Part shown: piece by piece, positions 3,188 through 16,201 of the stretch
Layout: every line of letters begins with the position of its first letter
How positions within the stretch are numbered: position 1 is the stretch's first letter
Notes under the pieces: generated by a model
What the model saw: only the letters and a program-made list of their open reading frames with translations
The model's database searches: none
What the model was told of the DNA's origin: nothing
Position numbers and translations under genes: made by a program
Virus record (IMG/VR): IMGVR_UViG_3300031452_000172
Coordinates: 1 to 39,962 of that record
DNA from: a virus
Taxonomy: Duplodnaviria > Caudoviricetes
Length of the DNA stretch: 39,962 nt
Direction: 5' to 3' (one strand)

Positions 3188-4218
3188 CAGGCGACCCTGG
3201 TTTCGGGCTCGGGCTCGGGATCGCCGGTCCGCTCCGGCATCAACCCCAGCAGACCCAGCACGGCTGCGGCCCGACTCGACGGCGGCGGGCTATCGAGACC
3301 ATGGAAAGCGCCGGCGGGGTTGTCGAGCCAGATGCCGCCGACCGGATCCAGGCTTCGATGCGTCTCCCAATTCAGGAACCGGAATTCCATGTCGAGGAAC
3401 GTCCGGTAGCTTTCGACGATCTCGCGAGATGGAGTCATCGGCACCGGATCGGCGCAGACCGTCAAGGCCACCTCCACGATGTTTGAACAGGCTGCCGAAG
3501 CTGTTTCTGCCGTCCTGCGCGCCATCAGCATCCGGCCAAGGTCGACCATAATCGACAAGAGCATCGTCTCGCCGCCCGAATTGCTTGCCTGTTCGGCCAG
3601 TTCCTCCTGGATCCCTTCGATGCCCTGGTAGCAGCTCAGCGCCACCCCGACCTTGCTCAAGATCCCGTCCATGGTCAGCGCCGGCCGACCAATCATGTCG
3701 CGTCTGATAGTGGAGGCCGCTTCGGCGTCTGCCGTGACCTTGTTCCATGCCTCGGGAAACCCGGCCGCATTCAGGGCCGCTTGTCGGTCGGCTCTCCACT
3801 GATCGTAGGCGGCCACGATCTCGTCACGGCGGTGCTGGTGCTCCGGCCGTGAGTACCGGAATGTCCGCAGCTCTTCTAACTTCCGCTCGGCGGTGTACCC
3901 GTAGGGCTCGTCCAGGTTCTGATAGCCGCCGATCGATGCGGCGTCTGTCGCCTCCCTGAACCGCAGAGCGTCAGGGAGCGACACTTCGACGAAAGCGTCT
4001 TCCGCACGATTTAGAGCCTCAAACGACGCCTCGTGAACAGCGGCGAGGCGCTCGTGCTCGCTGGCGAGGTCGATGATCTCGGCGTCGGCGGCATTTGCTC
4101 GGGGGATGAATGGCGCGGTCACGACAGGTGCAAAACCGGGCGCGGTGCCAGTGGACGGTGAACTGCCGGTGAGCTGATGAACTCCGGACGCGGCTGTGGT
4201 ATCGGGATTGGTGATCAT
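3187..4218 (-). CDS. Phage hypothetical protein
   Basis: 343-aa ORF, GAGG RBS upstream, coupled to the next gene. Confidence 0.7.
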   Translation of the reverse strand: MITNPDTTAASGVHQLTGSSPSTGTAPGFAPVVTAPFIPRANAADAEIIDLASEHERLAAVHEASFEALNRAEDAFVEVSLPDALRFREATDAASIGGYQNLDEPYGYTAERKLEELRTFRYSRPEHQHRRDEIVAAYDQWRADRQAALNAAGFPEAWNKVTADAEAASTIRRDMIGRPALTMDGILSKVGVALSCYQGIEGIQEELAEQASNSGGETMLLSIMVDLGRMLMARRTAETASAACSNIVEVALTVCADPVPMTPSREIVESYRTFLDMEFRFLNWETHRSLDPVGGIWLDNPAGAFHGLDSPPPSSRAAAVLGLLGLMPERTGDPEPEPETRVA

Positions 4219-12169: not shown

Positions 12170-12592
12170 ATGAGCGCGCCGATGCCCCGGGGCTTGAACC
12201 GCCAGCCCGACCTTGCCGGGCTGCCGCCGAACATCCTCTCGGCCCTCGCGGCGATCGCCCAAGATCTCAGGCATACGCCGCGCGACTGCTTCGTCGACCG
12301 GGCCGAACTCGTGCACTGGCTCAACCGCCTGGCGCGCCGCGTGGACGGCGTCGCCGCGATCCGGACGCCCATCGCCCCGCCAGCCGTCCGCAGGCCGCCC
12401 ACGGCCTCCGCAGCGCGGCCGCGTCCGGCATCGGCACGGTCCGAAGCCGAAGCCGTGTTCGGCAAGGCCAAGCCCACGAAGTCCCTCACCGCCCCCAGGA
12501 CGATCACCACCCGCAAGGGCCGGTCCGTCCGGGTCGAGACGCGCCGCAGCCGCTGGAAATCGCCGGCGCAAACCGAGCTGGAATTTGGATGA
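12170..12592 (+). CDS. Phage hypothetical protein
   Basis: 140 aa, AGGA RBS, ATGA overlap with the next gene. Confidence 0.55.
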   Translation: MSAPMPRGLNRQPDLAGLPPNILSALAAIAQDLRHTPRDCFVDRAELVHWLNRLARRVDGVAAIRTPIAPPAVRRPPTASAARPRPASARSEAEAVFGKAKPTKSLTAPRTITTRKGRSVRVETRRSRWKSPAQTELEFG

Positions 12593-13206
12593 GCACCACG
12601 AAGGCACCACCCGCCGACCCCACAGCGTTCCGGGCGTTCATGCAGGCCCGCAGGGGCGCGAAGGGCAAGAGGGCGCAACCGGAGCGGCCGGCACCGCTCG
12701 TCAAGCCCACCGACGAGCGGCTTGAGAAGAACGATCGGCCACGCAAGACGGACGGTGGGTTCTATCGTGCGCCGGCGCCGATCGAGCGGCTCCGCGACCA
12801 CCGCAAGTTGGACCCGCTGCCCCACGTCAACGAGGCCATGTTCCAGGCCGCGGGCAAGCTCTATTCCGTGTTCTATCTCGGCGGTCTCGGCGGTATCGCG
12901 GCTCAGGACCTCAGCCGATGCGTCGGTGGCGGCGATGGCGGTTCATGCGGGTTCCCGCGCAACGAGCGGGCCATGCACAACCGTCAGGTCTTTCGCGAGG
13001 CCGTCAGGATCATGGGGTGGCACGAAGCCTTCCCGCACCGCGGCGCGGCCCGGCTCGTCGTCGACGTAATCTGCTTCGACATGGCGATCCGCGACGCCTC
13101 CCGCATCCACATCCCGCTCGGCCGAACCGAGGTCAGTACCGCGGCCGGGATGGATCGTCTCCGCGAGGGCCTGTTCGCCCTGGCATCTCACTGGCGCCTG
13201 TTCTGA
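12589..13206 (+). CDS. Putative late-gene regulator / Q-like antiterminator (DUF6456-like)
   Basis: Occupies the Q position after replication; C-terminal LVVDVICFD...LREGLFALASHW resembles alphaproteobacterial phage DUF6456 proteins. Confidence 0.6.
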   Translation: MSTTKAPPADPTAFRAFMQARRGAKGKRAQPERPAPLVKPTDERLEKNDRPRKTDGGFYRAPAPIERLRDHRKLDPLPHVNEAMFQAAGKLYSVFYLGGLGGIAAQDLSRCVGGGDGGSCGFPRNERAMHNRQVFREAVRIMGWHEAFPHRGAARLVVDVICFDMAIRDASRIHIPLGRTEVSTAAGMDRLREGLFALASHWRLF

Positions 13207-13216
13207 GGAAACCACC

Positions 13217-13807
13217 GTGACTGAAAAAACTATAACGATCCCCGAAATCAACCTGCAGAGTATGGTCGTGTCGATCGTCGGCAGGACCCCGCTGCTCACC
13301 AACCGGTTCAGCGAAAAGTCGATTGAGCAAATCGAGGACAAGCAGCAGCACCGGGCCAAGGTCGCCAAGGAGGCGCGCAACCCAGAGGCCGAGTTCAGGG
13401 ACGCGGCGCACCTGATCTCCCCGGGCGTCTACGGGTTCCCTGCGGTCGGCATCAAGAAAGCACTTGTGGCGGCCGGCGGCCGTTTCGCCGACGAGAAGAT
13501 GACCCACCTACGGGGCGTCATCAACGTCATGGGCGACCTTATCCCGATCGTCGGCCCGGCACCGACCATGCGCAGCGACACGATCCGGCTGCAGGGGTCG
13601 AAAAGCAGCTTGGCCTATCGGCCGCAGTTCTCGCCGTGGGCCATGGACGTGCCGATCGTCTTCAACGCCGGGATCATCGGCCAGGCGCAGATCCTGAACC
13701 TGTTCCAGATCGCAGGTTTCTCCGTCGGCATCGGCGCGTGGCGTCCCGAATGCAACGGTACCTTTGGGCAATTCGCCCTCAACGAGTCGGCCGCCCTTGC
13801 GGCTTGA
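13217..13807 (+). CDS. Stand-alone RAMP/Cas7-like RNA-binding protein (Vipr-like)
   Basis: Beta1 VSIVGRTPLL, FPAVGIKKAL (Cas7 IPGSSxKGAL-like), YRPQFSPW, and C-terminal Gly-rich loop GIGAWRPECNGTFGQF; GAGG RBS. Confidence 0.78.
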   Translation: MTEKTITIPEINLQSMVVSIVGRTPLLTNRFSEKSIEQIEDKQQHRAKVAKEARNPEAEFRDAAHLISPGVYGFPAVGIKKALVAAGGRFADEKMTHLRGVINVMGDLIPIVGPAPTMRSDTIRLQGSKSSLAYRPQFSPWAMDVPIVFNAGIIGQAQILNLFQIAGFSVGIGAWRPECNGTFGQFALNESAALAA

Positions 13808-13811
13808 CGCA

Positions 13812-13874
13812 CCCTAAGCACAGTGGATCAACGAACAGCACGCCATCGCTCACCGTACCTATCCAAAGCACAGT
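13812..13874 (+). ncRNA. Pentameric (ASC-NN) array 1; candidate guide RNA
   Basis: 13 triplets at 5-nt spacing: CCC AGC AGT ATC CGA AGC GCC CGC ACC ACC TCC AGC AGT; begins 5 nt after the RAMP stop; strand inferred. Confidence 0.6.
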
Positions 13875-13903
13875 ATGATCCATGCTTGCGAGGGTTATCG
13901 TTA

Positions 13904-13966
13904 CACCTAGCTTCGCATAGCAAACCGGAGCCTGCCGGAGTCAACCGGATCGCACCACACCAAAGC
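13904..13966 (+). ncRNA. Pentameric (ASC-NN) array 2; candidate guide RNA
   Basis: 13 triplets at 5-nt spacing: CAC AGC CGC AGC ACC AGC GCC AGT ACC ATC ACC ACC AGC; strand inferred. Confidence 0.68.
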
Positions 13967-13988
13967 AAATAACTGGCATGGGTATTGG

Positions 13989-14774
13989 ATGATAGCGCTG
14001 ATAAGTCTTCGCGAATATTTCGCAGCGGCCGGCTCCTCCTTCACCAAGGAGGATGCCGAGGTCATCGGTCCCCATATCGAGACGCTAGCCGAAGAGGGCG
14101 ACGCCAGCGAGCGCCGGGTTGTCGATGTCGCGCGATCGTCGAATTCCCCGCTCCACACCTATTTCGATTGGAACGACGAGTCGGCAGCCGACCGGTTCCG
14201 GCTGCATCAGGCCGGCACGATGCTGCGCTCGATCCGTGTCAGGTTCATCGAGAACGACCGCCCGCGCACGGCTCCCGCCTACAGGATCGCCAGGACGCAG
14301 CCGAAGTCGGCCTTCACCCGCGGCCACAACGTGCTGCACGGGCAATCGGCCGCGGCCGTCACCAAGGCCAAAGACGCCTTCGACGAACTGACCGCCTGGC
14401 GCGCTCGCTACGCGCCCTTCGTCGCCATCTGGCAGGATTTCGCACAGACCTTCCGTGGGGTCGCGAATCAGATCGGGGAGGCCGAGGACATCGTGAACAC
14501 GGCCGGTCTCGACGACCGGACCGACCTCGCTTTGACCGAGTTGCAGGTGTGCCTGTCGGCTGTGAGCGCATGGCGTGAGAAGTACGCTGCGACCTCGAGC
14601 GAATGGGCATCGCTTAGCGAGCAGGCCGCGTTCATGCAGACGGCGATCGACGAAGCCATGCGCGTGTTCACCGACGTGCAGAAGGCGGCCGAGCGGCCGT
14701 GCCTGCGGTGTGGGAAGGCGTTTCAAAGCAGCGGGCAGGAAAACCGGTTGTGCGAGCGGTGCGGGACGAAGTAG
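13989..14774 (+). CDS. RAMP-associated protein with C-terminal Zn ribbon
   Basis: VVDVARSSNSPLHTYFDWNDESAADRFRLHQAG motif; CLRC-x13-CERC at the C-terminus. Confidence 0.75.
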   Translation: MIALISLREYFAAAGSSFTKEDAEVIGPHIETLAEEGDASERRVVDVARSSNSPLHTYFDWNDESAADRFRLHQAGTMLRSIRVRFIENDRPRTAPAYRIARTQPKSAFTRGHNVLHGQSAAAVTKAKDAFDELTAWRARYAPFVAIWQDFAQTFRGVANQIGEAEDIVNTAGLDDRTDLALTELQVCLSAVSAWREKYAATSSEWASLSEQAAFMQTAIDEAMRVFTDVQKAAERPCLRCGKAFQSSGQENRLCERCGTK

Positions 14775-14859
14775 ATACGAAAATCCGAGGGGCTTGATTT
14801 CCGCTCGCGGCCAAAGCGTATCTCGCGCTATGCCAAGCGGCAAGCATGGAGACCTAGAT

Positions 14860-15129
14860 ATGGCAAGTTACAATGCGGCGATAGGGACAATGATTGGAGC
14901 TAAATTCGATCCTGATCGAGCAAATGTGCGCCACTTCGAGGCCGCGTCTGACGATCATGCGACGGAAACGATGTGGCTTTGGGTTAGGACATTACCTTTG
15001 TTGTTGGTTCCTTCATCTCCTACTCACGTAAGACTAAGAGAAGTGGTTACGGCAACGGATCGGCGTCTAGTGAATACATGGCCACTTCCAGATCAGTCGG
15101 AAACTCAGACCGATGCCGACCGGACCTAA
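14860..15129 (+). CDS. Small hypothetical protein (89 aa, AT-richer moron)
   Basis: GGAGA RBS plus ATG at 14860; atypical codon usage. Confidence 0.5.
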   Translation: MASYNAAIGTMIGAKFDPDRANVRHFEAASDDHATETMWLWVRTLPLLLVPSSPTHVRLREVVTATDRRLVNTWPLPDQSETQTDADRT

Positions 15130-15160
15130 AGGCTAGAAGCACCCCGCCAACGTGACGCCG

Positions 15161-15190: not shown

Positions 15191-15213
15191 GCAGGCAAGT
15201 TCAGGAATTCCGC

Positions 15214-15250
15214 ACGGCGCCGCGACCATCGCAGGCGCCGTTGTCGTTTC
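15214..15250 (+). terminator. Hairpin with weak U-tract just downstream of the putative late promoter (tR'-like)
   Basis: ACGGCGCC-GCGA-cca-TCGC-a-GGCGCCGT followed by TGTCGTTTC. Confidence 0.5.
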
Positions 15251-15258
15251 TGAGCTGA

Positions 15259-15316
15259 AGCAATGTCAAGCTCGGCCAGTCGAAGCGTCGTCTGGCGAAC
15301 CGAACCGGACCAAAGC
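15259..15316 (+). ncRNA. Pentameric (ASC-NN) array 3 in the leader of the sigma gene
   Basis: 12 triplets at 5-nt spacing: AGC TGT AGC GGC GTC AGC CGT GGC ACC ACC ACC AGC; ends in CCAAAGC as found at or near the end of arrays 1 and 2. Confidence 0.55.
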
Positions 15317-15334
15317 GTAAGCCGAGGCCAGCCG

Positions 15335-16201
15335 ATGACGGTACAAGCCAGCGTCGGTCATCTCCTGTTGAAAGCTGCGCACGACGCGCCGAAGCTCGAT
15401 GCCGAGGCCGAACGCGACCTCGTAGAGCGCTTCCACGAAGGTGACCGAGTCGCGCTCGGTCAGTTGATCATCGCCAACGTCAAGCTCGCGATCCGACGCG
15501 CCGCTGCACTGCGCGGCTACGGATTGCAGGCCGACGATCTGGTCCAGGAAGGCATCATCGGCCTGCTTGAGGCGGCATCCCGCTTCGACATCGACCAGGA
15601 GGTTAGATTTTCTACCTACGCGTTGTGGTGGATCCGGGCCACCACCATGGAATTCGTTCTCCGCAACTGGTCGATCGTCCGCACGTCTATGGATGGCGAT
15701 CAGAAGCGGATGTTCTTTCAACTCCGGCGCACGAAGGAACGCTTGTTGCGGGACCCCTCGACCGACCCGGCTTCGATCCGCGCGGCAATCGCATCGGCAC
15801 TCGGTGTCCCTGAGCGGGAGGTCGAGATCATGGAAGCCCGGCTCGGCGGCGATGTCTCGCTGAACGCACCCGCGTCATGGGACGAAGACGGAGAGGCTGA
15901 GATCGGCGACAGTCTCGCTGACGACGCTCCGCTTCCCGACACCATCGCATTCAGCATGATCGAGACCGACAGCAAGGAGATCGCGCTGCGCGACGCCATG
16001 AGCCAACTCGACGACAGGGAACGCCTCGTCGTGCAGGAACGCTGGCTTACCGACGACATCGCCCCGCTCGCGGCACTCGGCGAGTTCCTCGGCATCAGCG
16101 CCCAACGGGTAAAGCGCATAGAGATCGCGGCGATCGCCAAGCTGCAGGCCGGCGCTGCCGGTGTCTGGGCTGCAGAGAGCGCGGCAGGCCCCACGTACTG
16201 A
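15335..16201 (+). CDS. rpoH: RpoH (sigma-32)-family RNA polymerase sigma factor, phage-borne
   Basis: Region 2 DDLVQEGIIGLLEAASRFD...RFSTYALWWIRA, RNWSIVR, RpoH-box-like QKRMFFQLRR, region 4 LGISAQRVKRIE; ORF open from 15263 but the ATG at 15335 has a GAGG upstream. Confidence 0.88.
   Translation: MTVQASVGHLLLKAAHDAPKLDAEAERDLVERFHEGDRVALGQLIIANVKLAIRRAAALRGYGLQADDLVQEGIIGLLEAASRFDIDQEVRFSTYALWWIRATTMEFVLRNWSIVRTSMDGDQKRMFFQLRRTKERLLRDPSTDPASIRAAIASALGVPEREVEIMEARLGGDVSLNAPASWDEDGEAEIGDSLADDAPLPDTIAFSMIETDSKEIALRDAMSQLDDRERLVVQERWLTDDIAPLAALGEFLGISAQRVKRIEIAAIAKLQAGAAGVWAAESAAGPTY

Follow-up and report, generated by a model that had tools for sequence, protein, structure and literature searches.

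Which RNA-guided system is represented by a solo RAMP gene that lies in a prophage and is followed by arrays of pentamers, which scaffold do its guides carry, and at what might they be aimed? The window analysed here, 39,962 bases in length, is the whole of a viral record classed as a provirus (completeness 76% by CheckV), and its gene content is that of a prophage: integrase, CI-like repressor, primase, sigma-32-like factor, terminase, portal, head and contractile tail. The best sequencing-run holders of the locus were rock metagenomes, and no RNA runs were found among the listed runs holding it. An earlier note on this DNA had described the locus as free of cas1, cas2, cas3, cas10 and CRISPR. 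This stood for cas1, which was not found in the record at its 76% completeness, and for the repeat-spacer array, none being seen and no regularly spaced repeat family occurring among the 20 of 30 families listed; cas2, cas3 and cas10 did not appear among the ORFs covered by a general scan. The coordinates 13217-13807 and 13989-14774, given in the note for ORFs of 196 and 261 aa, were confirmed. The features of the locus are as follows:

12589..13206, + strand, upstream gene with a weak DUF6456 match (E 3.5e-4, under the curated cut-off)
13217..13807, + strand, vipr, solo RAMP of 196 aa with a GTG start (phrog_4652, E 7e-19)
13812..13876, + strand, array A, 13 triplet/NN units; candidate target, a PF11681 virion gene in rival prophages
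13877..13908, + strand, A-B linker of 32 nt
13909..13968, + strand, array B, 12 units
13989..14774, + strand, accessory (vap-position) gene of 261 aa with a phrog_15946 N-terminal domain and a C4 Zn ribbon
14860..15129, + strand, 89-aa ORF, part of a swappable cassette that lies between vap and C
15198..15256, + strand, long hairpin directly 5' of array C (z -5.1 on the + strand, -2.1 on the - strand)
15259..15318, + strand, array C, 12 units; candidate target, a tail-fibre gene (phrog_11303) in rival prophages
15338..16201, + strand, sigma-32-like factor gene, start inferred by alignment with L005 and L007; context

The upstream gene is likely co-transcribed with vipr, because its stop lies 10 nt before vipr; it is listed as a context gene, which does not imply membership in the system. 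The 89-aa ORF, missing in L005 and swapped for other sequence in further contigs, is probably not part of the VIPR system. It stands behind a sigma-70-like promoter in the cassette 14784-15155, which is flanked by two segments recurring in other contexts in four runs. The phage-borne sigma-32-like gene (15338-16201) follows array C directly; L005 has an extra array (L005:6702-6756) downstream of this gene, with no counterpart in the window.

The RAMP layout claimed for the 196-aa protein is borne out by its translation, which contains the motifs GRTPLL, PAVGIKKAL and GIGAWRP..GTFGQF. The structural check proposed in the note gave an AlphaFold model (pLDDT 82.6) which, among the Foldseek matches listed, hit class 1 CRISPR effector chains throughout, with chains of the Csm3/Cmr/Cas7 type among them (VIA best Z 11.0, rmsd 3.9, 154 aligned). 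The protein shares the RRM core, thumb and G-loop fold with the Cas7-group RAMPs (Csm3, Cmr4/6, Cas7-11) but is 8-21% identical to them, and its locus differs from theirs in having neither cas1 nor a repeat-spacer array and in a gapped reading with a step of 5 nt. The protein matched neither a Pfam nor an NCBIfam family. Its sole sequence match in the PDB was SUSP1 Vipr (36pp_D, E 1.4e-4, residues 127-187, the G-loop region), and this match and the fold mark the solo RAMP as a Vipr homologue; a profile search yielded 4,464 representatives at E<=0.001. The phage VIPR systems to which the note refers are indeed in print (10.64898/2026.04.26.720920; 10.64898/2026.04.26.720927), and period-5 arrays were found next to homologues of the gene as well. 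We regard the membership of the locus in the VIPR family as nearly certain.

The best 12-unit stretches of arrays A and B have a column information of 3.32 and 3.70 bits, respectively, which was reached in 0/1000 dinucleotide shuffles (shuffle mean about 1.45). Similarly, 0/1000 shuffles reached the score of array C, a region picked after it had been seen. Two arrays of 13 pentamers each had been reported: A does have 13 units, B has 12 (13 if a poor last unit is counted) and the third array, C, had been missed. Over the 37 units on the + strand, position 1 is A in 25, C in 5, G in 5 and T in 2, position 2 is G in 21, C in 13 and T in 3, and position 3 is C in 31, T in 5 and A in one. The consensus triplet on the vipr strand is A-(G/C)-C, followed by NN, and not the GGY that the note had in mind, since exact GGY units make up 2/37 on the + strand and 11/37 on the - strand. 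The NN of guides A, B and C are unrelated to one another. The linker 13877..13908 contains no ribozyme, tRNA-like element or stable fold, the linkers between arrays fold no better than shuffles, and no promoter or terminator match was found at the arrays; Rfam at gathering score gave 0 matches in 10 sources and ARAGORN 0 in 7 sources. Sequence like that of the hairpin 15198..15256 is also present in L005 and L007, and the hairpin is a possible processing site for array C. On the 3' side of C there is no conserved sequence on the + strand, divergence beginning straight after C in L007, X8 and X9.

The broad marks of VIPR are present: a Vipr-homologous single-domain RAMP, a non-CRISPR proviral setting, an adjacent accessory gene, and 13, 12 and 12 pentamers with a fixed related triplet and with NN that vary between guides and relatives. 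As in the published systems (10.64898/2026.04.26.720920), a solo RAMP of about 20 kDa and one accessory gene occur in a provirus with arrays in the range of 9-16 pentamers and without a CRISPR array, and the candidate targets belong to other prophages, the wobble base being the one skipped. The scaffold is different, A-(G/C)-C here and GGY there. The alternative repeats NNNGG, YNNNG and NNNNG of VIPR all keep G2 (10.64898/2026.04.26.720920), whereas position 2 is G in 21/37 units here. As far as the accessible part of 10.64898/2026.04.26.720927 describes the type II VIPR of SUSP1 and P. fulva, our locus shares the equivalents of R138, W178 and R179 with it but has N and A in place of H17 and D177, no Vap1 homologue (tested on a SUSP1-like phage), and nothing like the conserved, structured 3' tail of 40 nt, an invariant feature of type II. 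The locus is VIPR in the broad sense and not canonical type II. VIPR itself and non-canonical triplets are already in print: 21 clusters with other triplets (GAC, CAC, WGT, TGH) beside Vipr-like folds are reported in the accessible part of 10.64898/2026.10.21.760802, and the clade of the window may be among them. That part does not give AGC/ACC, a triplet-residue link, targets or spacers. In the accessible parts of the VIPR texts we found neither a residue-to-scaffold link nor tRNA-like spacers, and their figures or supplementary data may already place the clade.

Owing to the self-complementarity of R-S-Y, the two strands share one NN register; the strand that is read needed a separate argument, and either strand predicts the same target duplexes. 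No near-perfect target site for A, B or C was found in the collections searched. The exact targets of C (20 bases) and B (18 bases) were found 0 times in IMG/VR, and the two IMG/VR matches of a relaxed C pattern were rejected, both being unrelated low-GC sequence. With 3 mismatches allowed, C, B and A matched 0, 1 and 0 of 31 Lichenihabitans-genus genomes, and their reversed controls matched 1, 0 and 1; the single match of B (L260) lies in a gene that is presumably serralysin-like, and was discarded. So were 7 C-core matches in 401 family genomes, whose genes did not look like phage genes, and L264 at 21/24, which is near a rough chance estimate. Self-targeting was also rejected: the best matches in the window had 16-17 NN matches (skips 0-2), equal to controls, no self-match exceeded 17, and the window's own tail fibre is without the target motif.

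The 15-base core of C occurs in about 340 stretches of IMG/VR, of which 120 were listed, none with more than 5/8 on the window flanks, and 10 of these 120 belong to one tail-fibre family. Among the 31 Lichenihabitans-genus genomes, a profile of this family detected one member, whose sequence is in register both with C (18/24) and with the longer guide of L005 (27/36). Among 7 family genomes with a tail-fibre homologue, L272 scored 20/24 with C, a value that is partly circular because the tail-fibre family was first chosen through C's own core; the other five homologues scored 14-17 of 24. The match of C in L272 is in frame in the tail-fibre gene, with a 1-nt skip. The 18-unit version of C in L005 scored 27/36 in both L271 and L272, and its flanks, unused in selection, gave 14/20 (L271) and 12/20 (L272), against a maximum of 13 in 105 core-matching null sites. 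The four flank units of the window's own guide C gave 5/8, which 8/105 null sites reached.

We then have the scan of 16 clade guides over 274 kb around the tail-fibre prophages, regions which were chosen without use of A. The best 1-skip match of A, 20/26 and in frame, is in a PF11681 gene after DUF3383 (L291), a position inferred to be that of the tail tube. A score of 20 was reached in 7/1000 shuffles, skips of 0, 2 and 3 gave 16-17, and the other three PF11681 homologues gave 17, 15 and 10 of 26; no PF11681 homologue was found in the 31 Lichenihabitans-genus genomes. The match of 77% is below the 80% cut-off of 10.64898/2026.04.26.720920. The scores of guide B and of 12 guides from related loci did not exceed the range of their 12 shuffles by more than one. 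In a search of 201 genomes (control 0), B had one in-frame match of 21/24, L294 (G007:C6:661052-661080), which may be due to chance. We take the gene concerned to be RHS/YD-repeat-like. For the gapped DNA target mentioned in the note there are candidates in the case of A and C, as in-frame 1-nt-skip matches in other prophages, and nothing firm in that of B.

The matches of A and C are suggestive. The prophages concerned are of the DUF3383-tail type from Beijerinckiaceae, and the window's own tail differs in kind from theirs. The family matched by C also occurs in Salmonella SEN34, and both families occur in Klebsiella Mulock. On balance we favour tail genes as the targets of guides A and C, and not more strongly than this because the matched genes are distant relatives of any true target. 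The main alternative is a VIPR system with the same A-(G/C)-C scaffold whose tail-gene matches are due to chance, the real targets (a satellite, a repressor region, a host gene or other VIPR loci) being outside the collections. Matches of 77-83%, the partly circular choice of the family for C, the testing of 16 guides and the lack of a result for B are all in agreement with chance. We nevertheless consider it unlikely: the matches of A and C are both in frame, both have the skip on the wobble base and both fall into one class of tail module, that of A came from regions selected independently of it, and unit 4 of the guide, which is CA in the window and GC in L005, varies in parallel with a Gln/Ala difference among members of the target family.

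The strand of the guides was examined by a strand-symmetric array scan over 116 Vipr loci. This count excludes L025 and L043, which lacked a G-loop match, the 120 pattern loci, and 22 loci that were duplicates, near-duplicates or non-informative. The loci were compared by the residue at the position of SUSP1 D177. Arrays were present in 88/96 Asp/Glu loci, of which 80 had been retrieved by a pattern requiring Asp/Glu, and 88/88 had a sense G1 of at least 0.6, that is, GGY on the vipr strand. Ala/Cys loci had an array in 13/16 cases, with A1 exceeding G1 in 12/13, and the Ser loci were mixed, L033 and L034 being mostly GGC and L035 AAC-like (AAC/NN arrays). A quick tree of 56 of the 116 rows (all 20 non-Asp/Glu and 36/96 Asp/Glu) showed 4 changes of the residue state. 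Residue and scaffold agreed in 3 independent pairs (sign test p=0.25), a number with which the link cannot reach significance.

In the accessible part of the SUSP1 study, H17 and D177 read G1, and R138 and W178 read G2 (10.64898/2026.04.26.720927). An alignment through the SUSP1-like phage ESCO56, too gappy in mid-protein to map K33, K82 and K88, places N29 and A174 at the H17 and D177 positions and shows that R138, W178 and R179 are retained as R135, W175 and R176. All of the 120 closest proteins have N at the first site, and the second is A in 108, S in 7, C in 4 and G in one. Asn may be able to read adenine. Read in the sense direction, G at position 2, found in 70% of the 267 units of 21 clade arrays, is kept together with its contact R135/W175, and G1 is lost together with H17/D177; the C at position 2 in 13/37 window units, despite the retained R135, counts against this reading. 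The comparison suggests that the loss of the G1-reading His/Asp pair accompanies the change of G1 to A.

The competing explanation of the scaffold is that of antisense G-(G/C)-Y/NN guides transcribed from their own promoters, i.e. a degenerate canonical VIPR in which the hairpin 15198-15256 is the 3' tail. On the minus strand, G1 is found in 31/37 units and exact GGY in the 11 mentioned above, the sole conserved hairpin lies 5' of C on the + strand and so in the place of a 3' tail on the - strand, and nothing is conserved 3' of C on the + strand. We judge this explanation improbable, since an antisense GGY array was scored in only 1/96 canonical (Asp/Glu) loci, where it resembles a sense array in a shifted phase, since the better fold of the hairpin is that of the plus strand, and since antisense guides would have G1 although H17/D177 are gone and lack G2 although R138/W178 are retained. 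Moreover, hammerhead and T-loop elements of close relatives are sense-polar. The nearest His/Asp lineage, L013/L014 (59% identity), is sister to the clade of the window; its GGY arrays are in sense orientation and are interrupted by a hammerhead, likewise sense (E 3.6e-4, slightly below gathering). Together with the 116-locus scan and the sense elements of L008 (see below), this hammerhead speaks for guides of the sense A-(G/C)-C/NN type, and the arrays are very probably of this A-S-C/NN form. An 'AA' near the array end was rejected as a strand marker: it occurs in the last three units of 18/21 clade arrays, and canonical arrays do not have the same bias (64/335 last, 108 first). At L014:1131-1194 a type II hammerhead lies between the sense GGY arrays, followed by a second hammerhead-like motif.

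That the arrays are decaying remnants beside a protein no longer guided by RNA, as might be supposed because D177A abolishes silencing by SUSP1 Vipr (accessible part of 10.64898/2026.04.26.720927) and because the scaffolds here are more degenerate than the canonical ones, is very improbable in view of N29, invariant in 74/74 aligned proteins, of 21 regular-length arrays in 7/7 clade loci, of the NN of C, conserved over its triplets, and of the cassette turnover in the run X5 contig.

Relatives of the locus support the programmability of the arrays. The closest named relative of the Vipr protein is encoded by a Lichenihabitans MAG (82%). In L007, whose Vipr is 97% identical, three arrays unrelated to A and B of the window lie between the two genes, and in the run X5 contig 13808-14046 is swapped for 307 other letters between alignable flanks. 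Array C differs from that of L007 at 9/36 triplet and 1/24 NN positions (Fisher p=0.04) and from that of L005 at 9/36 and 3/24 positions, the latter not significantly (p=0.33); the X8 contig over array C is not an independent comparison because it repeats the changes of L007. Such conservation of NN is as would be expected of a guide under selection.

The partner encoded by 13989-14774 consists of a phrog_15946 domain (34-144), a helical middle and a phrog_13335 C4 Zn ribbon (214-260), the cysteines of which (C238/C241/C255/C258) are invariant in 25/25 aligned homologues. The Zn-ribbon partner named in the note is thus real, and it is not the Vap1 of SUSP1: comparison with the vap1-position gene of ESCO56 gave an hhalign probability of 0.2, i.e. 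no homology. Its N-terminal domain also occurs in the gene beside vipr at the canonical-GGY loci L037 and L039. The partner of L002 ends in a Trans_reg_C winged helix in place of the Zn ribbon, which suggests that the C-terminal domain is an interchangeable DNA-binding add-on. The model of the partner (pTM 0.30) had no Foldseek match at E<=0.001, and an Atlas search returned unnamed viral clusters only.

By analogy with SUSP1, the locus might function as follows. The arrays are likely transcribed on the vipr strand and processed into three guides, each some 60 nt long, along which Vipr would polymerise as a filament with one subunit per A-(G/C)-C-NN unit. The NN pairs would read double-stranded DNA in a triplex with a one-base skip, probably helped in DNA engagement by the Zn-ribbon partner, and transcription of the tail genes of competing prophages would be blocked. 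Taken as a whole, the reading of the locus as a VIPR-family RNA-guided silencer of rival tail genes with an A-(G/C)-C scaffold is probable. The interpretation in the note is supported, with three amendments: a scaffold other than GGY, a third guide, and a partner other than the Vap1 of SUSP1. We put forward more tentatively, as a possibility, that the His17/Asp177 positions set the scaffold that is loaded, that the clade forms an orthogonal channel immune to GGY decoys and aims at conserved myovirus tail genes, and that in some members tRNA-processing enzymes of the host cut the guides at mini-tRNA spacers.

For an RNA-guided system described only recently, this would amount to a rule of protein-RNA specificity that is open to direct test: a substitution that inactivates SUSP1 Vipr occurs here naturally, together with a changed scaffold. 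Should the rule hold, orthogonal Vipr/guide pairs could be employed in parallel, and the switch of scaffold would plausibly serve to evade guide hijacking; the satellite solo vrRNAs are GGY decoy guides, according to the accessible part of 10.64898/2026.10.15.759431. The candidate targets would carry the 1-nt-skip code to a non-GGY system, with tail genes as a target class.

Staggered arrays, hammerheads and single guides have already been described as guide-processing routes of VIPR, and the tRNA-like spacers of the relative L008 would be a further one. L008 (Ga0134125_10007930; Vipr 73%) has three sense mini-tRNA-like spacers between A-scaffold guides (L008:3812-3851, 3933-3972 and 4039-4078), each with a 7-bp acceptor stem, a 9-nt linker and a 5-bp stem (T-arm) with a TTCRACT loop. 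Pairing is found in 36/36 cells and 8/12 pairs are changed on both sides, as scored on the same three sequences from which the structure was derived. Spacers of this kind, which both ARAGORN and Rfam miss, were confined to L008 among about 117 loci screened and would suit processing by RNase P/Z. Downstream of the same VIPR locus, L008:5514-5573 is a truncated tRNA without a T-arm (Rfam 35.2 bits).

Other relatives show further array forms. L002, L003, L004 and L025, in which Vipr likewise has N/A, contain very degenerate N-(G/C)-(A/C)/NN arrays between vipr and vap, with Y3 often A and with 3-7 guides each, parted by a repeated A/T-rich linker. The distant Vipr locus L046 (G076:C1) carries Arg in place of Asp177; its CGC/NN arrays are long, lie in sense orientation and are interrupted by hairpins, one of them with a UUCG loop.
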